A DNA stretch of 64,000 nt from an uncultured Thermoanaerobaculia bacterium (GTDB lineage: Bacteria > Acidobacteriota > Thermoanaerobaculia > Multivoradales > Multivoraceae): positions 3,198,859 to 3,262,858 of the forward strand of contig OX638294.1 of the NCBI GenBank assembly GCA_951812325.1, in the 5' to 3' direction. The notes under the pieces were generated by a model. That model had not been told where the DNA came from. It ran no database searches and was given only the letters and a program-made list of their open reading frames with translations. The translations under genes were made by a program, and so were the position numbers. Numbering within the stretch: the first letter of the stretch is position 1; each line of letters opens with the position of its first letter. Positions 49,080 to 63,921 of this stretch are shown piece after piece.

Positions 49080-50312
49080 ATGAACGGCCGGCGCATCTTC
49101 GCCGCGGTGACGGTCGGTCACCTCGGGATCGACATCTTCAACAGCATGGGGCCCGTGCTGTTGGCCTTCCTCAAGGAGCCGCTCGGCCTGAGCGCGGCGC
49201 AGATCGGGCTTGCGGTGGGACTCTTCCAGGTGCTGGCCGGCGCCACGCAGCCGGCATTCGGCTGGTTGGTCGACCGGGTCGGCAGCCGCATTCTCGGACC
49301 GTTCAGCGTCGCCTTCAACTTGGGGTGCGTGGCGCTGGCGGTCGCTCTGGCCGCCGCGACGGGGAGTTTCGGCCTGTTTCTCATCCCGTTCGCCCTGGCG
49401 GCGGTTGCTTCCGGCGCCTTCCACCCCCTGGGCGTGATGCACTCGAGTACGGTGAACCCGGCGCGCTCGTCGACGTTCACGGCCATCTTCTTCTTCTGCG
49501 GCCAGGTCGGGCTCACGACCGGGCCGTATCTGGCGGGGCTGGCGCTCGACCGGGCGGGGCTGACCGGGATCTACTGGCTCGTGCTGGTCGTGGCGCCCGC
49601 GCCCCTGTTCATGGCCTTCGCGATGGGGCCGCGGCGATTCCACCGGGCGCCGCAGGCGCCTCAGCCGGGGGAGACGAGGGAGGTTGCCGCGTCAGGGTCG
49701 GGCGGCGGCCCGGCTTCGGCTTCCGAAGCTCCCGGCCGGCGGCCTCGCGTGCGGCCCTGGCTGATGGCTCTCCTGGCTCTGGTGTTCGCCAGCCGGTCCT
49801 GGGCTGTGTTCGGGACGCTCGCGTTTCTTCCCCTGCTGCTCGCGGAGCAGGGCTACAGTTCCAAGTTGCAGGGGCTCGCCAGCGGCATGTTCCTGCTGGG
49901 CGGCGCGGTGGCGGCCGTTCTGGCCGGGGAATGGGCTGAGCGTTGGGGGCGGCGTCCGGTTGTCTTCCTGACCACGTCGCTCGGCGCCCTGCTCCTCGTC
50001 TTCCTGCCGGGCTCCGGGAGCTCGACCTTTGCGCTGGCCCTGCCCTGCGGAGCACTGCTGGGAGCGTCGCACTCGATTCTCATCGTCATGGCCCAGTCGC
50101 TGCTGCCCTGGCGGCGGGGTCTGGCCTCGGGAACGTCGCTGGGCTTCCTGTTCGCGACCGGCGGCACCGCCACCTGGGCGATCGGGGGACTCGCCGACCG
50201 CTTCGAACTGGCCTCGGTGCTTCAGGCCGGCGCCGTCGTCGGCCTGTTGTCCGCAGTGGCCTCGCTTCTCCTGCCGAAGCAGGAGCAGGCCCCGGTCGCT
50301 GCCGCGCCTGCC
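49080..50312 (+). CDS. MFS transporter (N-terminal portion of an in-frame fusion ORF)
   Basis: MFS motif A GWLVDRVGSR, 12 predicted TM helices. There is no in-frame stop before the downstream outer-membrane-protein sequence, so the boundary at about 50312 is inferred. Confidence 0.6.
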
Positions 50313-53054
50313 GTGGCGACGGTCCTGGTGGCGGTGGTCGGCCTGGCCCTGTGTTCCCCGGGCGCCGCCACGGCCGGCCTGAACGGCGAGATCAACGGCC
50401 AGGTGCGCGACGAGGCCACCGGAGAGCCTCTGCGCGGCGCGGAGATCAGGATCACCGGGGCGCAGTTGTACGACCCGAGGATCGTGCACGTCGCCGCCGG
50501 CGGCAGCTACCGGGCGGCGGGATTGCCTCCCGGCAGCTACAGCGTGGAGGCGAGCGTGCAGGGGTTTGCGACCTCCGCGGCGGAGAACCTGATCCTGGTG
50601 ACGGGCGGTGTGCTGAGAGTCGACTTCGATCTTCGCGCCGGCGGCGCCACGAGTCTCGACCTCGTCTCGTCGCCCCTGCTCGACGTGGTCACCGGCAGTG
50701 ACGGCAACGTGCTGGCCGGAGACGACCTGCGGGAACTGCCCGGCTCGACCGCGGCCGAGAGCCTGGACCTCGCCACAGGCCTGGACGCGGTTGCCGGCGG
50801 TCTGTCGGTCAGCGGCTGGTCTCCCGGACTCGCCAGCTATCGGATCGACGGACAGGAAACGGCCATCGCTGCCCGCGAAGCGACCGCGGTGGACCTTCAT
50901 TGGGTCGATCAGGTACGCGTGCGGACGATGGACTTCTCGGCGGCGCTGGCCGGCCCGCACATCGACCTGATCACGCGGACTGGCGACACGGCCTGGCGTG
51001 TGAACGGGGGGCTGTCGGCCGTGGAGCCGTTGGACCGGGCCAAGAGACCGGCTCTGCGCCAGCAGGCGGGTGAGCAGGCTTCCTTCGGCGGCGCCGACAG
51101 CAGGAGGATTTCCGGCGAAGAGGCCTACGTCTTCGTTGGCGGTCCTCTCCGCGACGAGCGCGCGCGCGCTTTCGGCGGCCACTCGACGGGCCGGGCCAGC
51201 GGCGTCTTCGATCTGTTCCTGGCGGGCGCGCCATCGACCTGGCGGGAGACGACGGAAGTGGCGGTCGGCAAGCTGGACTGGTGGGCCGGGTCGGCCAGCA
51301 ACCTGAGCCTGAAGCATCACGAGGGAGTCTCGGAACTGGAAGGCCGTCGGCCCGCCCTGCTGGTGCTTCCCGACGGCAATGGTGCGGAGAGAAGACGTTC
51401 CAGTCACCAGACGACGAGCCTGAACGTCGAGTGGGGAATCACGGATCGGCTGTGGCTCCGGCTCTTCGGCGGCCGTTCCGACCTTCGCGATCGCGCCGAT
51501 CCCTGGCAGGACACGGGCGCCTACTTCCTGGCGTCCGCCCCGGGTCTCGTCGCCGGCTCGCTGCACCCGCGGACCGCGGGGCCGCTGCGGCGGTTGGCGG
51601 CGCGCCGGAACTGGGCCGTGGAACCGTCGTTCTTCCTGTTCGATCACACACTGGACGTCGGCATTCAGAGTGCCCGCGGTGAGTTGCAGCTGGTTCGCTC
51701 CGAACATCCGGGACAGGAGTTGCGGCTTCCCGGCGGCCCCCTGCCGGAGTGGCGCGGCGAGCCCCTCGGAGTTGGCGGTTTGCGGCAGGAGAAGCGGGCG
51801 CTCTACGTCCAGGACGTCTGGCGTCTGGCGGGAGTCTTCGACAGACGCCTGACCCTGCATCTGGGAGTGCGTGCCGAGGAGGAGACGACCGGCCCGCTCG
51901 AACTCGGCTTCGGCGATCGCACCGAACCCCGGATGGGCTTCGTCTGGGACGTGACCGGACGCGGAAAGTGGAAGGTCTACGGAGGCGCGGCCTGGTGGCA
52001 TGTGGACGCCTTCCGGCCCGTGGCCGGTTTGGCGGGTATTGACGGACTGGCCGCTCTGCAGACGGCGGGATACTCCGGCACGTCCCTGATCTTCGAGCAT
52101 GCCGCCGTTGATCCCGACCTGCGTCCCGGGCTGTCGCGGGAGGTCCAGTTGGGAACGAGATACCAGTTCCTGCCGGACGTGGTGATCTCCGCCCGTCTCG
52201 CCCGCCGCCGGCTTCGCGACGGGATACGGCTGGTTCCGGTGAACGGCGGCGGCGTGATCGTGCCGACGCTCCTGACGCCGGGCGTGGGCGCCGGTGTCGA
52301 TCCCTGGGGAGGGACAGGCCGCGATCTGCCGCGGTTGCAACAGGACTGGTGGGGCGCCGAACTCAACGCGAACGTCGGTTTCAGCCCGGCCTGGCGCGTC
52401 CACTTCAACTATCTGCGGAGCCGGCTGACCGGCAACCACGAGGTCGGCGGCCTGGCGCTTCAGGCCTTCAGTGGAACCGACGTTCATCCAGCGGCGGCGG
52501 CGTTGGACCTCTGTTCATCGCCGGTAGCCTGTGACGTCTTCGACGTGACCGACGAGAGCAGGCGCCTCGATGTGGACCGCGAGCACCAACTCGCCGGCTG
52601 GTTCGTGCTGTCTCCCGGCGACCGGCTGATGATGGCCCTCGTCTACCGGTTCCGCACCGGCGGGTCGTACGTGCCGCGGACCATGGCGGTACGGGTCGAC
52701 GAGGAGAACCGGATTCTCAGCAGCGGACTGGCGCCGTTGTCTCCCGGTGCGGAGACGCCGGTCAGGAGTTCGGATCTGAAGCGGGCGGACCTGGCGCTGA
52801 CTCTCCGCATCCCGCTGCGCTCCGTGCATCGGCGGCTGGCCTTCTTCGCCGAGGCGCTGAACGTCTTCGACCAGGACGCCGCAACCGATCTCTGGCCGCT
52901 CGCCTACTTCGATCCGGTGCTGATCGGTCCGGGGGCGGGCAACGTCGCCGACGCCGTCGCCGAACAGCAGCCGAGGCCGGACGGCCGCGAAGGCTTCGCG
53001 GCCGCGTTCCAGGACAGCCGCCGGGTGCGGGCCGGGTTGCGGCTGCAGTTCTGA
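50313..53054 (+). CDS. TonB-dependent-receptor-like outer-membrane protein with carboxypeptidase-regulatory-like N-terminal domain (C-terminal portion of fusion ORF)
   Basis: Signal-like VATVLVAVVGLALCSPGAATA, then CarbopepD_reg-like GQVRDEATGEPLRGAEIRITG...GSYSVEASVQGF, then a long beta-barrel ending ...RAGLRLQF. Internal GTG start is hypothetical. Confidence 0.5.
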   Translation: MATVLVAVVGLALCSPGAATAGLNGEINGQVRDEATGEPLRGAEIRITGAQLYDPRIVHVAAGGSYRAAGLPPGSYSVEASVQGFATSAAENLILVTGGVLRVDFDLRAGGATSLDLVSSPLLDVVTGSDGNVLAGDDLRELPGSTAAESLDLATGLDAVAGGLSVSGWSPGLASYRIDGQETAIAAREATAVDLHWVDQVRVRTMDFSAALAGPHIDLITRTGDTAWRVNGGLSAVEPLDRAKRPALRQQAGEQASFGGADSRRISGEEAYVFVGGPLRDERARAFGGHSTGRASGVFDLFLAGAPSTWRETTEVAVGKLDWWAGSASNLSLKHHEGVSELEGRRPALLVLPDGNGAERRRSSHQTTSLNVEWGITDRLWLRLFGGRSDLRDRADPWQDTGAYFLASAPGLVAGSLHPRTAGPLRRLAARRNWAVEPSFFLFDHTLDVGIQSARGELQLVRSEHPGQELRLPGGPLPEWRGEPLGVGGLRQEKRALYVQDVWRLAGVFDRRLTLHLGVRAEEETTGPLELGFGDRTEPRMGFVWDVTGRGKWKVYGGAAWWHVDAFRPVAGLAGIDGLAALQTAGYSGTSLIFEHAAVDPDLRPGLSREVQLGTRYQFLPDVVISARLARRRLRDGIRLVPVNGGGVIVPTLLTPGVGAGVDPWGGTGRDLPRLQQDWWGAELNANVGFSPAWRVHFNYLRSRLTGNHEVGGLALQAFSGTDVHPAAAALDLCSSPVACDVFDVTDESRRLDVDREHQLAGWFVLSPGDRLMMALVYRFRTGGSYVPRTMAVRVDEENRILSSGLAPLSPGAETPVRSSDLKRADLALTLRIPLRSVHRRLAFFAEALNVFDQDAATDLWPLAYFDPVLIGPGAGNVADAVAEQQPRPDGREGFAAAFQDSRRVRAGLRLQF

Positions 53055-53160: not shown

Positions 53161-53547
53161 TTACCACGCGATCCGCACCGGATACCGGGAAACCAGCCTG
53201 TCCGGTGTGACCAGCGTCATCCCGTGCTCGATTGCCTGGCAGATCAGGAGGCGGTCGAACGGATCGCCGTGCACGGGCGGCAGCCGCGGTAGCTGCAGGG
53301 CGCTGGCCTCGTCGACCGGCAGGGAACTGAAGCCGTACCACTCTCGCCGTGTGGGAACGAAGACGTCTGGCTGTGCCGGCAACTCGAGTTTGCCGAGCCC
53401 GTGCTTGACGGCCAACTCCCAGGCCGTGACCGCGCTCACGTAGACGTCGTTCGCGGGGTCCGCGACGAGCTTTCGGACTTCCCCGGAGACTCTGGCGGAG
53501 CCTTGGCTCCACCAAAGGAACACGCAGGTGTCGAGCAGCAGCTTCAC
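53161..53547 (-). CDS. vapC: PIN-domain toxin VapC
   Basis: 128 aa. MKLLLDTCVFLWW... with the PIN acidic residues. 4-nt overlap with the upstream antitoxin. Confidence 0.8.
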   Translation of the reverse strand: MKLLLDTCVFLWWSQGSARVSGEVRKLVADPANDVYVSAVTAWELAVKHGLGKLELPAQPDVFVPTRREWYGFSSLPVDEASALQLPRLPPVHGDPFDRLLICQAIEHGMTLVTPDRLVSRYPVRIAW

Positions 53548-53810
53548 TCTTCGGGAAGTATCGGCCCGTTCTCGAACGCGTCGATGAACTCGTCGGGCAG
53601 GGGGTCGAAGAAGGAGTCGGGGACCTCGAACTTGCCTCGATCCAGTCCGAACGGGCGAGGTTTCTTCCGGGCCGCCGGCACAGGACGAATCTCGGCGACC
53701 GGCTCGTTCCGGCGGCAGAGGAGGATCGTCTCCCCTGACTCCACCCGCGCGATGTAGCGGGAGAGATGCGTCTTGGCCTCGTGCATGTTGAGTCGGATCA
53801 TGATCGACAA
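53544..53810 (-). CDS. Phd/YefM-family antitoxin
   Basis: 88 aa. MIRLNMHEAKTHLSRYIARVESGETILLCRRNEPVAEIRPV is typical of Phd/YefM. The real start may be Met4 (53801). Confidence 0.75.
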   Translation of the reverse strand: MSIMIRLNMHEAKTHLSRYIARVESGETILLCRRNEPVAEIRPVPAARKKPRPFGLDRGKFEVPDSFFDPLPDEFIDAFENGPILPEE

Positions 53811-53907
53811 GTTAGTTCAGTTGTGGACTCGATGTCAACCGCGAAGCGAGGCCTGCAGCGGCTTGGTGCGCAACCGGGAGCCGGCAGCGGCGCGCCGTGC
53901 GCCCGCC

Positions 53908-54171
53908 GGTTACACCAGTTCGCTCAGCCGATGCAGCGCCGCCAGCAGGTCGGGCTGCTCGGTGAGCACGCCGCGTAGCGGGTCGGTCTTGCGCCGGTTA
54001 CACCAGTTCGCTCAGCCGATGCAGCGCCGCCAGCAGGTCGGGCTGCTCCGTGAGCACGCCGCGTAGCGGGTCGGTCTTGCGCCGGTTACACCAGCTCGCT
54101 CAGCCGCCTTAGCGCGGCCAGCAGGTCGGGTTGCTCGGTGAGCACGCCGCGTAGCGGGTCGGTCTTGAGCT
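53908..54171. repeat. 88-bp tandem repeat x3; third copy is the authentic 3' end of ligD, including its stop codon
   Basis: Units begin at 53908, 53996 and 54084 with ggttacaccag(t/c)tcgctcagcc...gtgagcacgccgcgtagcgggtcggtcttg. Each copy carries the TAA (minus strand) and about 28 C-terminal codons. Confidence 0.85.
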
Positions 54172-56833
54172 GCTTGAGCCGTTCGGGCAGCGACCGGATG
54201 GTGTGGTCGCGCAGGTCGAGGCCGGGCTTGACCTCGGACCAGCGCAGCGGCGTCGAGACCGGGGCCGCCGGGAGCGGTCTGACGCTGAAGGGGGCGACGA
54301 GCAGCCGTCCGCGGCCGTTCTGGACGAAGTCGATGTAGACCTTGCCGCCGCGGCGTTCGGGGTTGCGGGTGATCGTGGCGATGTCGGGCAACTGGCGGCA
54401 GATGATCCGGGCGATCAGTTGGCCGAGGCCGCGGGACTGCTCGAAGGTGCAGGCGCCGCCGAGCGGCAGAAGAACGTGCAGACCGCTCGAGCCGCTGGTC
54501 TTGACGAAGCTGGGCAGCTTGATCTTCCGGCACAGGCGGCGGATGGCCAGGGCGATCTCGATCACGTCCCCGAAGGGTGCGTCCTTCGGGTCGAGATCGA
54601 GGATGCACCAGTCGGGCTGGCCGAGCTGGTGCACCCGGCTCGACCAGACGTGGAGGACGATCGCGCCCAGGTTGGCGATGTAGACCAGGCTTTCACGGTC
54701 CCGACAGACGAAGTACTCGACTTCCTTGCCGGTGCGGGGGCTCACCAGCTTCACGGTTTGCAGCCAGTCCGGCGCGAAGTCGGGCGCGTTCTTCTGGAAG
54801 AAGGACTTGCCTTCGATCCCGTCGGGATAGCGGGTCATGACCAGCGGCCGGTCGGTCAGGTAGGGCTGCATCGCGTCGGCAATCCCGGCGTAGAAGTCGA
54901 TCAGGTCACCCTTCGTGTAGCCCTCGGCCGGCCAGAACACCTTGGACCTGTTCGTCACGTCGACGCGCCGTTCGGGCGGCGGCGGCGGGGCGGCGCCGGG
55001 GGCCCGCGGCCCGGCGCGGCGTACGCAGTCCTCGACCGGCTTGTCGTCGCGCAAGCGGAGGAAGACAGGGTGCCGGAGCACGCCGTGGGGGGTCCATTCC
55101 TTGTAGCGGACCTCGCAGATCAGCTCCGAACGGGGCTCGATCCAGGTCTGCTCTTCGACCCGGCCGCCGATCAGGTCGTTGTCGGCCAGCGGCCTGTCGA
55201 CGGGATCGTCGGCGTCTGCGCCGTTGCCCGCGCGGCCGCCGGCGTCTGCGCCGTTGCCCGCGCGGCCGCCGCCGTCGGCGCCGACGGGGGCCCGGCATGG
55301 CGGACGGTCGCGCTGGTTGGCCGACAGTCGATCCGCCAGCTCCGCGAGGATCGCGTCGCTGAACCCGGCGCCGACGCGTCCGGCATAGACGAGGCCGCCG
55401 GCTTTGCCTTCGCCGGCTTTGCCTCCGCCGGCTTTGCCTCCGCTGGCTTCGGCGCCGCTGGCGCCGGCTTTGCCTCCGCTGGCGGCCGCCGTGCCGCTGG
55501 CCTCCGCATCCCAGACCGCCAGGTGGAGCGAGCCGAAACCGACCCGGCTGCCCTTGGGCGGCGACATGCCGACGATGGCGAAGTCGGCGGTCCGTTCGGT
55601 GCGCAGCTTGACCCACGACGACGACCGGCGGCCAACGTAGCGGGAGTCGCCGTCCTTGGCCATCGCGCCTTCAAGGCCCATCGCCGCCACCTGCTCGAAG
55701 AACGCCTCGCCCTGCTCCTCGATGTGGTCCGAGTAGCGGAGCGGCCCGGCCGGGGGCAGAACCTTCGCCAGCAGGGCCTTTCGCTCCAGCAGGGCCAGCG
55801 ACCGCAGGTCCGATCCCTCGAAGGCGACGAGATCGAAGGCGAACAAGGTCGCGGGCCGGCGCACGGCGGCCTGTTCGATGTCGACCGGTCGGCTGAGCAG
55901 GGCGCGCGTCTGCAGCCTGGCGAAGCTGGGCCTGCCGCCGGCGTCGAGGACGGTGACCTCGCCGTCCAGGACCAGGGACTGCACCGGCAGGGCGCGCAGG
56001 GCGCGGACCAGTTCGGGGTAGAGCGCGGTCACGTTGCCGCCGTTCCGGTAGCGCAGGAAGACGTTGCCGCCTTCCCTGGCCGCCACCAGCCGGTAGCCGT
56101 CGTACTTCAGTTCGTAGATCCAGCCCGGCCGGGAGAACGGCCGGTCACCGGCGACCGCGAGCATCAGTTGCAGCGAGCGCGGGTCGACGTCTTGCCGTCG
56201 CGCGCCGGATTCGGCGACCTCGGCACGCACCTCCTCGATCCGCTCGCAGCCGTCCCGGAGTTCCTCGACGGTCAGGCCCGAGAGCACGGACTCCGGCGGC
56301 AGGTCGTCCGCGCCGCCCTCGCTCTCCGGGCGGGCAGCCGCGTCGGGTTTCTTCATCAGCAGCCACTGGTTGCCGCCGTCCGTCTGGCGCCGGCCGCCCG
56401 TGCGAAACAGGGTCCAGACGCCGCGCAGCTTGTAGCCGTGGAGTTCGAAGAGGAGCTTGCCGTTCTCCAACCCGGCGACCGGGTCCTCAAGCGGCCTCCA
56501 GCGGCCGCTGTCCCAGACGATCATCGCCCCGGCGCCGTAGTTGCCGGCGGGGATCGATCCCTCGAAATCGGCGTACTCCAGCGGGTGGTCCTCGGTGGCC
56601 ACCGCCAGGCGTTTGACCTCGGGGTCGAGGCTGGGACCGCGGGGCACGGCCCACGACTTGAGAGTGCCTTCGAGTTCCAGGCGCAGGTCGTAGTGAACGC
56701 GGCGTGCCGCGTGCTTCTGGACGACGAAGCGGCCGGCGCCCGTTCCCGTCGCGGGACCGAAGGGTTCGGGCGTCGCTTCGCTCGATCGCTTGCGGCGGTA
56801 GGCCTCGAGATTGCCGCTCGGCATCCGCGGCAT
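54086..56833 (-). CDS. ligD: Multifunctional NHEJ ligase LigD (phosphoesterase - ATP-dependent ligase - polymerase domains)
   Basis: 915 aa. N-terminal PE domain (VQKHAARRVHYDLRLE), ligase KxDG motif ELKYDGYRLVA, C-terminal Pol domain (SGSSGLHVLLPL). The low-complexity (GKAG)n / (GGRAGNGADA)2 linker is encoded by DNA repeats. Confidence 0.9.
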   Translation of the reverse strand: MPRMPSGNLEAYRRKRSSEATPEPFGPATGTGAGRFVVQKHAARRVHYDLRLELEGTLKSWAVPRGPSLDPEVKRLAVATEDHPLEYADFEGSIPAGNYGAGAMIVWDSGRWRPLEDPVAGLENGKLLFELHGYKLRGVWTLFRTGGRRQTDGGNQWLLMKKPDAAARPESEGGADDLPPESVLSGLTVEELRDGCERIEEVRAEVAESGARRQDVDPRSLQLMLAVAGDRPFSRPGWIYELKYDGYRLVAAREGGNVFLRYRNGGNVTALYPELVRALRALPVQSLVLDGEVTVLDAGGRPSFARLQTRALLSRPVDIEQAAVRRPATLFAFDLVAFEGSDLRSLALLERKALLAKVLPPAGPLRYSDHIEEQGEAFFEQVAAMGLEGAMAKDGDSRYVGRRSSSWVKLRTERTADFAIVGMSPPKGSRVGFGSLHLAVWDAEASGTAAASGGKAGASGAEASGGKAGGGKAGEGKAGGLVYAGRVGAGFSDAILAELADRLSANQRDRPPCRAPVGADGGGRAGNGADAGGRAGNGADADDPVDRPLADNDLIGGRVEEQTWIEPRSELICEVRYKEWTPHGVLRHPVFLRLRDDKPVEDCVRRAGPRAPGAAPPPPPERRVDVTNRSKVFWPAEGYTKGDLIDFYAGIADAMQPYLTDRPLVMTRYPDGIEGKSFFQKNAPDFAPDWLQTVKLVSPRTGKEVEYFVCRDRESLVYIANLGAIVLHVWSSRVHQLGQPDWCILDLDPKDAPFGDVIEIALAIRRLCRKIKLPSFVKTSGSSGLHVLLPLGGACTFEQSRGLGQLIARIICRQLPDIATITRNPERRGGKVYIDFVQNGRGRLLVAPFSVRPLPAAPVSTPLRWSEVKPGLDLRDHTIRSLPERLKQLKTDPLRGVLTEQPDLLAALRRLSELV
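55211..55270. repeat. Perfect 30-bp tandem duplication inside ligD encoding (GGRAGNGADA)x2
   Basis: ggcgtctgcgccgttgcccgcgcggccgcc twice. An adjacent GCCGGCTTTGCC(T/C)CCGC repeats encode the (GKAG)n linker. Confidence 0.8.
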
Positions 56834-61852: not shown

Positions 61853-62100
61853 CAGCGGTACGATGACCGCCATGCCAGCGCCCGCCCGGCGACCGCCCGG
61901 CGCCCGTCTCGACCGACCACGACACGTCGGGCGACAGCGGTACGATGACCAGCCATGCCAGCGCCCCGGCGACCGTCTCGACCGACTGCGACACGTCGGG
62001 TGACAGCGGTACGATGACCGCCATGCCAGTGCCCGCCCGGAGACCGTCTCGACCGACTGCGGCACGTCGGGTGACAGCGGTACGATGACCCGCCATGCCA
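61851..62100. repeat. Tandem repeat (units 82, 69, 71 bp, plus a partial fourth) immediately upstream of and running into the MT-A70 MTase start
   Basis: Units begin at 61851, 61933, 62002 and 62073 with gacagcggtacgatgacc(n)ccatgccag(c/t)gc... Each copy reproduces the ATGCCAGCGC start context of the MTase gene. The first copy starts at the M1 peptidase stop codon. Confidence 0.85.
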
Positions 62101-62733
62101 GCGCACGAGCACTTGGCGGCGGCCGACTTCGAGCGGACGTACGCGGGTAGCGTCTTCGGCACCGTCCTGGCGGATCCGCCGTGGCAGTTCCTGAACCGCA
62201 CCGGCAAGGTGGCGCCCGAGCACCGCCGCCTGAGCCGCTACGCGACCCTTTCGCAGACCGAGATTGAAGCAATCCCGGTCGCCGCGGCCTGCGCCGAGGC
62301 CGCCCACCTCTACCTCTGGGTACCCAATGCCCTCGTCCAGGAGGGCCTGGACGTGATGAAGCGCTGGGGTTTCACCTACAAGACGAACCTGGTCTGGCAC
62401 AAGGTGCGCAAGGACGGCGGCCCCGACGGTCGGGGAGTCGGCTTCTACTTCCGCAACACGACCGAACTCGTCCTGTTCGGCGTCCGCGGAAAGCTCCGCA
62501 CGCTGGCGCCGGGCCGGCGGCAGGTGAACATCATCCGCTCGCGCAAGCGGGAACACTCGCGCAAACCGGACGAACTGTACGAGATCATCGAAGCGTGCAG
62601 CCCCGGCCCCTACCTGGAGTTGTTCGCCCGCGGCCGCCACTCCGAACTCTGGACCGCCTGGGGCGACCAGAGCGACGGCTACGAGCCGGATTGGCCCACC
62701 TACGCGAACGCCAGCGGCGGCGTGGACCGCTAA
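62095..62733 (+). CDS. MT-A70-family N6-adenine methyltransferase
   Basis: 212 aa with the catalytic DPPW motif (VLADPPWQF) and conserved WVPN, FYFRNTTELVLFGVRGK. Confidence 0.8.
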   Translation: MPAHEHLAAADFERTYAGSVFGTVLADPPWQFLNRTGKVAPEHRRLSRYATLSQTEIEAIPVAAACAEAAHLYLWVPNALVQEGLDVMKRWGFTYKTNLVWHKVRKDGGPDGRGVGFYFRNTTELVLFGVRGKLRTLAPGRRQVNIIRSRKREHSRKPDELYEIIEACSPGPYLELFARGRHSELWTAWGDQSDGYEPDWPTYANASGGVDR

Positions 62734-62939
62734 CGGGCGGTGGTCTGGCTCGGCGCCCGCCGCCCGGCTCGAAGGCGCCGCCCCGCCGGCGTGTACCGCT
62801 AACGGGCGGTGGTCTGGCTCGGCGCCCGCAGCCCGGCTTTGAAGGCGCCGCCCCGCCGGCGTGTACCGCTAACGGGCGGTGGTCTGGCTCGGCGCCCGCC
62901 GCCCGGCTTGAAGGCGCCGTCCCGCCGGCGTCAGGCGAT
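62731..62939. repeat. About 70-bp tandem repeat x3 spanning the convergent 3' ends of the MT-A70 MTase (+) and fic (-)
   Basis: Units begin at 62731, 62800 and 62870 with taacgggcggtggtctggctcggcgcccgc(c/a)gcccggct...gtgtaccgc. Copy 1 supplies the MTase TAA; copy 3 supplies the fic stop (cta) and last 15 codons. Confidence 0.85.
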
Positions 62940-63921
62940 AGCGCTGGTCCTTCGCCCTCGGCGCCTCCGGTCGCGTCATCTCGATCAGGCCTGCTTGCAG
63001 GGCGGGTCCAAGGTATCCCTGACGCAGCCATTTTCGGTCGCGCAGGCCCAGTGCATCGAGCATCTCGCGCCTGGACATCTCTCCGTTCACTAGCTCCAGG
63101 AGCCGCTCTACTTGGGGGGGCACTTGCGGGGTTTCATGGGGGGTTACTTGGGGGGTTTCATGGGGGGTAGCCTGTCGCACCGCAGCGAGGATTGCGTCCA
63201 GCATGAAACGGATGAACGGTGTGCTCCCGCCTTGCCTGGAACTCTCTTCGATGGCCGTGTAGTACTCGGGCTGGCAAGCCTGCACGACGCTCTCCACCGG
63301 CACGTGGGCGAACATCGGCTTCCAGCGGCTGAGGATCAGGGTCTGCCACAGCCGGCCGAGGCGGCCGTTGCCGTCCTCGAAGGGATGAATGAACTCGAAC
63401 TCGTAGTGAAACACGGAGCTCGCGATCAGCGGGTGCTCCTCGGCGCCCCGCAGCCGGCTCAGGAGGTCCGCCATCAGCCCCGGCACGCGGTCTGCCGGCG
63501 GACCGATGTGGTGTACGCCGTCAGGGCCGATCACGCCCACGGCGGTGGTGCGGTATCGACCGGGTGTTGCGGCCAGTCCGGTCATCAGCGCTCGGTGAGC
63601 CCCGAGCAGGTCGTCCTCGCTCGCCGGCGTCCAATCCCCGGCCAGGTCGTAGGCCGCGTTCGCGTTGCGCACCTCCTGCACGTCCTTCGGCGGCCCTGCG
63701 ACCCGCTTGCCGTCAAGAATCGCCGACACCTGCTCCTCGGACAGCACGTTGCCCTCGATGGCCACGGAACCGTGAACCGTACGAACGCGGGCTTCCCGCC
63801 GCAGTTGCAGGTCCAGCCCCAGGCCGGCTGCTTCGGCCCGCCCGATCGCCTCACCGATCTGCTCCACCAGGAACAGGATCCCGGGCGTGATCGTGTAGGG
63901 CGGCGCCGCGGCAGCGGTCAT
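62869..63921 (-). CDS. Fic-family protein (AMPylation/phosphocholination-type fold)
   Basis: 350 aa. Canonical Fic motif HPFEDGNGRLGR. Contains a small TPHETPQV x2 internal repeat. Confidence 0.85.
   Translation of the reverse strand: MTAAAAPPYTITPGILFLVEQIGEAIGRAEAAGLGLDLQLRREARVRTVHGSVAIEGNVLSEEQVSAILDGKRVAGPPKDVQEVRNANAAYDLAGDWTPASEDDLLGAHRALMTGLAATPGRYRTTAVGVIGPDGVHHIGPPADRVPGLMADLLSRLRGAEEHPLIASSVFHYEFEFIHPFEDGNGRLGRLWQTLILSRWKPMFAHVPVESVVQACQPEYYTAIEESSRQGGSTPFIRFMLDAILAAVRQATPHETPQVTPHETPQVPPQVERLLELVNGEMSRREMLDALGLRDRKWLRQGYLGPALQAGLIEMTRPEAPRAKDQRYRLTPAGRRLQAGRRAPSQTTAR

Follow-up and report, generated by a model that had tools for sequence, protein, structure and literature searches.

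Three tandem copies of the 3' end of ligD, stop codon included, form a probably neutral minisatellite-like array in an acidobacterial genome

Results

The window, by which we mean the whole stretch of 64,000 nt that was analysed (G+C content 69%), encodes LigD on its minus strand (Table 1), with a C terminus that reads ...DLLAALRRLSELV*. The protein comprises, in this order, a phosphoesterase domain (PF13298, 2.7e-42), an ATP-dependent ligase domain (PF01068, 3.4e-28, and PF04679, 5e-18) and a primase-polymerase domain (PF21686, 3.8e-83), all of which score far above the Pfam cutoffs, and a Ku gene (PF02735, 1.5e-47) adjoins ligD divergently. The presence of the three domains in one polypeptide, with Ku adjacent, identifies the product as a DNA ligase D. 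The public gene call begins at Met4 and gives a protein of 912 aa; from this residue onward LigD of the window is 100% identical to P0121, which is encoded on a contig of 4,634,923 bp. We note that ligD also contains in-frame repeats in its low-complexity linkers, at 55210-55283 and 55395-55495 (30 bp x2.5; 15 bp x ~4-5). Compared with the two sequences of its sister lineage, L001 and L081 (see below), LigD carries private expansions of 12 aa in a (GKAG)n linker and of 10 aa by duplication of GGRAGNGADA; more distant relatives are without most of both inserts.

Downstream of ligD lie genes for a Phd/YefM-type antitoxin, syntenic in 16 relatives, and for a PIN-domain toxin, the GTG start of which overlaps the phd stop codon (GAGTGAAG). 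A small antitoxin gene upstream of, and overlapping, a VapC-like PIN toxin gene is the layout of a type II toxin-antitoxin module, with the reservation that the PF02604 match is borderline. A promoter-like TTGACA/TAACTT element lies 7 nt upstream of the phd ATG, and its sequence is kept in 12 relatives. A consensus scan of 53400-54400 on both strands found no promoter or terminator, and this element, a putative promoter, lies below its threshold. The element (TTGACAtcg...ACTGAACTAAGTT) is strongly conserved, and in every relative (homologous positions in L002-L025) its end precedes the phd ATG by only ~7-10 nt; this closeness to the ATG suggests that the phd transcript may be leaderless or nearly so. 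Next to this pair, an ORF on the plus strand (49080-53054, 1324 aa) joins an N-terminal MFS_1 domain to CarboxypepD_reg and a TonB-dependent-receptor beta-barrel, as judged by Pfam. It is unusual for an inner-membrane transporter and an outer-membrane receptor to be fused in this way; the same architecture is also called, at 1315-1316 aa, in the relatives L081, L082 and L083.

Table 1. Positions of the features discussed, counted from the first letter of the window
Feature	Position	Strand	Basis or remark
PIN-domain toxin gene, 128 aa	53161..53547	-	PF01850, 7.9e-12; synteny
Phd/YefM-type antitoxin gene (phd), 85 aa	53544..53801	-	PF02604, 4e-07, 30.2 bits vs cutoff 29.8 (borderline)
CGACCC, right deletion breakpoint, inside phd	53602..53607	-	window vs L001 alignment; L081 same
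phd/PIN promoter-like element	53809..53838	-	TTGACA (53838-53833), 18-nt spacer, TAACTT (53814-53809)
Unit C, second non-coding pseudo-3' end	53908..53995	-	TAA 53912-53910
Unit B, non-coding pseudo-3' end RKTDPLRGVLTEQPDLLAALHRLSELV*	53996..54083	-	TAA 54000-53998
CGACCC, left deletion breakpoint, at unit B start	54068..54073	-	window vs L001 alignment; L081 same
Unit A, real ligD 3' end: last 27 codons + TAA + 2 nt	54084..54171	-	TAA 54088-54086
ligD CDS, 915 aa from first ATG	54086..56833	-	translation, Pfam
MT-A70 5' array, 69 bp x3.0, 88% matches	61894-62104		Tandem Repeats Finder
MT-A70 methyltransferase ORF	62095-62733	+	Pfam, 1.3e-27
MT-A70 3' array, 69 bp x3.1, 95% matches	62718-62931		Tandem Repeats Finder

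Between ligD and phd, at 53904-54171, lie three head-to-tail units of 88 bp, each a copy of the ligD 3' end with its stop codon. Tandem Repeats Finder reported here, at 53904-54167, the strongest-scoring tandem array in the 64-kb window (period 88, 3.0 copies, 94% matches, 0% indels, score 472). Consistent with this, a 50-nt probe taken from the unit matched exactly three times in the 64-kb window at no more than one mismatch, compared with 0 matches expected from 100 dinucleotide-preserving shuffles. The locus exceeds the minimum for a tandem repeat, two head-to-tail copies of a unit of more than 9 bp that resemble each other beyond chance, and the triplication described in an earlier, sequence-only reading of this DNA is thereby borne out. 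That reading had also taken the highest-coordinate unit for the real end of ligD, which the minus-strand ORF and its TAA confirm. Its unit starts (53908, 53996 and 54084) are a valid register, to which Table 1 and the unit positions below refer; the true breakpoints lie four bases further along the gene direction. In breakpoint phase, unit A occupies 54167..54080, unit B 54079..53992 and unit C 53991..53904, and each unit reads CAAGACC...GTGTAACCGGCG. In gene direction, A is followed by B, by C and, beyond the array end at 53904, by a unique spacer of 102 nt that leads to the phd ATG.

Because the stop codon is part of what was repeated, full-length LigD is still encoded by the first copy, and the two further copies are shown to be non-coding filler in the ligD-phd spacer that leaves the LigD protein unchanged. 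The 28 pseudo-C-terminal codons previously attributed to each of B and C hold as a count that includes the stop; the sense codons number 27. As 88 equals 3x29+1, the units are mutually out of frame, unit B being shifted by +1 against the ligD frame. A single position separates B from C (unit position 35, G in B and C in unit C), and A is separated from C by 8 positions and from B by 9, which agrees with the few differences noted earlier. Three of the differences between A and B/C fall at the junction end (unit positions 1-4), and the remainder are CAA/CAG, GCC/GCG, CTAAGG/CTGCAT and GAG/GAA. Internally, A and B/C diverge at 7/84 positions, a degree comparable with that seen between the lineages, and 5/7 of these differences are synonymous third positions. 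The replacement of four consecutive bases, AAGG by GCAT, is private to B and C. The residue at this site varies across the LigD family (R/G/Q/H/P/S), and one functional homologue, P0015, has His there and ends LHRLSELV, as B and C do. Because the AAGG-to-GCAT change improves a hairpin, a quasi-palindrome template switch was weighed as its origin; it was rejected, as the product of a pure switch would be GCTGCTCGG, one base shorter than the observed GCTGCATCGG.

The array was compared with 80 loci from species-representative genomes, to which L081, L082 and L083 were added; the related sequences are metagenome-assembled genomes that bear the label Thermoanaerobaculia or 'Candidatus Multivorans' (Acidobacteriota), and several come from sponges. 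This comparison of copy number with related genomes, an approach put forward in the sequence-only reading, gave three units in the window, one unit plus a 12-nt remnant in L001 and L081, and a single unit at the ligD end in every other relative in which the unit was detectable (~40). L082 and L083, two further close relatives, likewise have one unit: each gave one ligD-end alignment and has a normal gene layout after ligD. Copy number thus varies between lineages among these related genomes. Exact look-ups of LigD (from both starts), the antitoxin and the MT-A70 protein in the collections returned no other assembly of the same strain, and the metagenome collection gave 0 hits for the 27-nt junction and 0 for a 27-mer specific to B/C.

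The closest relative, L001 (CATOTG010000001.1), has a LigD 95% identical to that of the window. Following its ligD stop, it reads TAACCGGCG CAAGACCGACCC, which is the tandem junction together with the first 12 nt of a second unit. The same junction, GTGTAACCGGCG/CAAGACCGACCC, stands directly after the ligD stop in L081 (ENA ERZ18545498); L001 and L081 are independent assemblies and carry different LigD proteins (P0001 and P0122). Past the junction, L001 runs on into the 3' end of phd, of which 20 codons are left, and then into an intact PIN gene; L081 likewise runs on into the phd 3' end and has the same deletion. In the outgroups, phd is intact and CAAGACCGACCC is absent after the ligD stop, and the state of L001 and L081 is therefore a deletion from an array of at least two units. 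Relative to the window, this deletion spans 466 nt (54073..53608), with CGACCC at both breakpoints; along with the remainder of the array it took the phd promoter and the greater part of phd (~65/85 codons, ~two thirds). As the alignments show, the array provided one end of the deletion.

Separately, we observed that the 128-aa PIN ORF is intact in L001 (8680-9140) and L081 (8905-9369), where it lies ~70 nt downstream of ligD and is 96% identical to that of the window, so that PIN apparently is an orphan toxin gene in two different strains. L083 (~90% LigD identity) lacks the phd/PIN pair, its ligD lying directly beside the MFS/TonB gene, and L027 (~90% LigD identity) gave no match to phd or PIN; the toxin-antitoxin module has therefore been lost repeatedly in the clade.

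Throughout the clade, the ligD-phd-PIN order and the phd promoter motif have been retained; the spacer otherwise varies in sequence and length, and the ligD-phd spacers of other relatives are ~40-190 nt of unrelated sequence. Both the synteny and the promoter are ancestral to the clade, which places the origin of the extra units at the locus itself, and a mobile toxin-antitoxin cassette that brought along a foreign ligD end is ruled out on the same grounds. The window and the L001/L081 lineage are 85-97% identical across the locus, depending on the segment. Along the final 617 nt of ligD, L001, L081, L027, L025, L082 and L083 each match the window at ~96% identity, with mosaic site patterns. 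At unit sites 41/56/77, B and C have G/G/A, as do L001 and L081, and A has A/C/G, as do L027, L083 and L082.

Overall, these comparisons suggest the following history. An 88-bp segment (the 27 last codons, TAA and 6 nt of spacer) was doubled in place in a common ancestor; because the L001/L081 state derives from an array of at least two units, this first duplication (1 to 2) is older than the split from the window lineage. The duplication is thus old and pre-split, not a recent accident. In the sister lineage, the CGACCC-microhomology deletion, with the array as one end, then cost the genome its extra unit or units together with the phd promoter and the greater part of phd. In the window lineage, unit B would have been doubled again, or B and C homogenised, and their difference of one base makes it probable that this expansion from two to three, or homogenisation, was recent. 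It is likely to have come about by slipped-strand mispairing or by unequal homologous exchange between 88-bp copies. The coding copy A may later have been altered by allelic recombination, or by substitutions under selective constraint. The few informative sites suggest that B and C keep the allele of the time of duplication and that it was A that changed later, by allelic recombination.

We also searched the array for signs of function. Rfam 15 gave no match near threshold, the sole match being Cis90_sRNA inside ligD (54730-54939; 15.5 bits vs a gathering score of 50, E = 0.57). The hairpins of B and C have no U-tract, and the array has no GC-rich hairpin with U-tract of the kind that defines an intrinsic terminator. 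Folded as a whole, the array does no better than shuffled sequence (z = -0.39), and single units A, B and C gave z values of -0.6, -0.4 and -1.9, respectively. None of the ORFs that cross the array (53773-54066 and 53766-53978 on the plus strand, 54012-54608 on the minus strand) matched a Pfam family.

Two further arrays flank an MT-A70 methyltransferase gene 8 kb from the ligD array (Table 1); they have no similarity to each other or to the ligD unit. The 5' array repeats the upstream spacer, the ATG and the first codons (GACAGCGGTACGATGACC..ATGCCAGCG, four times), and its first unit overlaps the TGA of an upstream M1-peptidase gene. In the 3' array, it is the last codons and TAA that are repeated, a layout shared with the ligD array; a 6-bp CGGCGT repeat, typical of slippage, lies at its borders. 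Close by, a Fic-family ORF on the minus strand (62869-63921) contains a 12/24-bp tandem repeat (63109-63168), an in-frame expansion that encodes TPHETPQV TPHETPQV PPQV where a linker connects the Fic domain to a Fic-like C-terminal domain. The window thus has three arrays with a period of at least 40, compared with three in 1.05 Mb of the relatives' ligD loci, which are not a genome-wide sample; this hints that the duplication rate is elevated in this genome.

Discussion

The results are most readily understood if the array is a genuine, old and neutral tandem duplication of the VNTR type, generated locally and later expanded, and we consider this reading likely. The best-supported origin is local duplication by slippage or unequal exchange, in keeping with the replication slippage proposed in the sequence-only reading; the first step would have proceeded with at most 2 bp of microhomology, and the step from two units to three needs only slippage or unequal exchange between 88-bp homologies. 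From negative computational results, and these only, we infer that the array is without function of its own and persists as harmless, and that its position beside a gene for non-homologous end joining (NHEJ) is a coincidence. The event is best read as having been tolerated because one intact ORF end remains. Three observations run counter to parts of this reading. The microhomology at the 1-to-2 junction (GC) is weak for classical slippage. The changes of AAGG to GCAT and of CAA to CAG lengthen an imperfect hairpin in B and C, which could hint at selection or at a template-switch event. Further, the density of long-unit arrays in the window compared with the relatives' loci does not sit easily with a background process.

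If the extra units had been made by an assembler or polisher from one true copy, as the sequence-only reading had considered, their divergence at up to 9 positions would be hard to explain, because a collapsed or expanded assembly error would look otherwise. The 264-bp array is, moreover, far shorter than the reads needed for a 4.63-Mb contig (the read type being inferred), and the junction and 12 nt of the second unit recur in related strains, in two assemblies made independently. On the other side stands the result of the look-ups, which found no further assembly of this strain, but the diverged units and the junction in L001 and L081 effectively exclude an artefact. Nearly as improbable is the capture of a foreign allele, in which B and C would be the ligD 3' end of another strain, left by imprecise recombination or integration. 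The mostly synonymous differences between A and B/C, the distribution of the B/C haplotype (L001 and L081) and the A haplotype (L027, L083 and L082), and the LHRLSELV ending of P0015 would fit such a capture. However, the B/C units start exactly at the end of this lineage's own spacer CCGGCG, and their tail is the lineage's own TAA-CCGGCG, as opposed to TAG and an unrelated spacer in other lineages. The synteny is ancestral and needs no import, overwriting of copy A by ordinary allelic recombination explains the haplotypes equally well, the His/Arg position is variable across the family, and the B/C-specific 27-mer has no hit in the metagenome collection.

We next consider whether the array could be something other than neutral. 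B and C might form a structured 3' UTR or terminator of ligD, or an insulator between ligD read-through and the phd/PIN promoter, with the GCAT and CAG changes selected for a stronger hairpin. The changes in unit C do extend the stem GCUCACCGAGCAGC / GCUGCAUCGGCUGAGC, its minimum free energy is -40.4 kcal/mol vs -32.4 for A (and its z value the lowest of the three), and the two pseudo-copies are almost identical. Yet the private C-to-G change of unit B weakens the same stem, with the z value given above, no U-tract or terminator consensus is present, the whole array folds no better than shuffled sequence, the array is conserved in no relative and was deleted in the sister lineage, and other relatives manage with short, unrelated spacers; we regard a functional element as decidedly unlikely. 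Somewhat less improbable, though still unlikely, is a repair scar, in which a staggered break (opposite-strand nicks ~88 nt apart) was filled in and joined by NHEJ of the Ku/LigD type. Such joining would give a tandem duplication without microhomology, and the step from two to three could still be homologous. The essentially blunt 1-to-2 junction (0-2 bp of microhomology), the complete Ku and LigD pair encoded beside the site and the unusual frequency of long-unit arrays in the window are all compatible with a scar, but the ligD junction is old, so any microhomology could have been erased, the MT-A70 3' array has a clear 6-bp direct repeat of the slippage type at its border, and the sequence bears no mark that identifies a joining enzyme. 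We know of no case that establishes tandem duplications of ~88 bp by bacterial NHEJ. The link to repair that had been suggested from the nature of the gene thus finds nothing in its support: two unrelated 69-bp arrays, each of about three units, lie at a methyltransferase gene in the same window, and nothing ties the event to ligD as an NHEJ gene. It is also conceivable, albeit improbable, that a lineage-specific and unusually active process, possibly linked to NHEJ, multiplies gene-boundary segments of ~70-90 bp, for which fill-in and joining of staggered breaks by Ku/LigD would be a candidate driver, or that the boundary arrays are locally generated, functional intercistronic modules (3'/5' UTR structures) analogous to MIRU. 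The first of these two readings would draw on the three arrays of the window and the two private expansions in ligD, set against three arrays in the 1.05 Mb of the relatives' loci.

Taken by itself, the ligD array matters little, as LigD is unchanged and no regulatory role is visible. As a case history, it is clean and datable: it indicates that gene-end tandem duplications can arise, outlast the split of lineages and expand, and that an old allele of a gene end may be kept as a fossil in the duplication and later become a substrate for microhomology deletion. One such deletion took away the antitoxin here, and the PIN toxin gene stayed intact. Annotators should not collapse the repeat, as an assembly error is very unlikely. 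Should the surplus of arrays at gene boundaries prove true of the whole genome, it would point to unusually duplication-prone repair or replication in these sponge-associated Acidobacteriota.

A literature search for a described precedent returned nothing directly relevant. We compared the array with known kinds of repeat. Bacterial VNTR or minisatellite loci, e.g. ETR and QUB, are used for typing Mycobacterium tuberculosis. The ligD array resembles them in its head-to-tail units tens of bases long, its location at a gene boundary in intergenic sequence, its imperfect copies, a copy number that differs between related lineages, and the slippage or unequal exchange by which such loci are generated and lost. 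It differs in that its unit is a local gene end, out of frame (88 = 3n+1), so that no protein is altered, and in that the copy-number variation seen here is that between lineages.

MIRU form a dispersed family of ~40 loci, the small ORFs of which overlap the upstream stop and the downstream start. The name stands for mycobacterial interspersed repetitive units, reportedly described by Supply et al. in 1997 and 2000. Like MIRU, the ligD array consists of tandem units in the 40-100 bp range that lie between genes of the same orientation, and the unit contains the stop codon of the gene upstream. However, the three arrays of the window are mutually dissimilar, which rules out a dispersed repeat family of the MIRU or REP-like kind. 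The ligD unit occurs nowhere else in the 64-kb window, and no dispersed related units were found there, in the 69-bp arrays or with the junction and internal probes in the metagenome collection. The ligD unit contains no small ORF that couples the upstream stop to the downstream start; the array stops short of the phd ATG by the length of the unique spacer, and phd has its own conserved promoter. The closest counterpart is provided by partial tandem gene duplications that keep one intact ORF, in which, as here, a 3' end with its stop codon is doubled, the upstream copy remains complete and the event is tolerated; we see no essential difference from these and file the ligD array with them.
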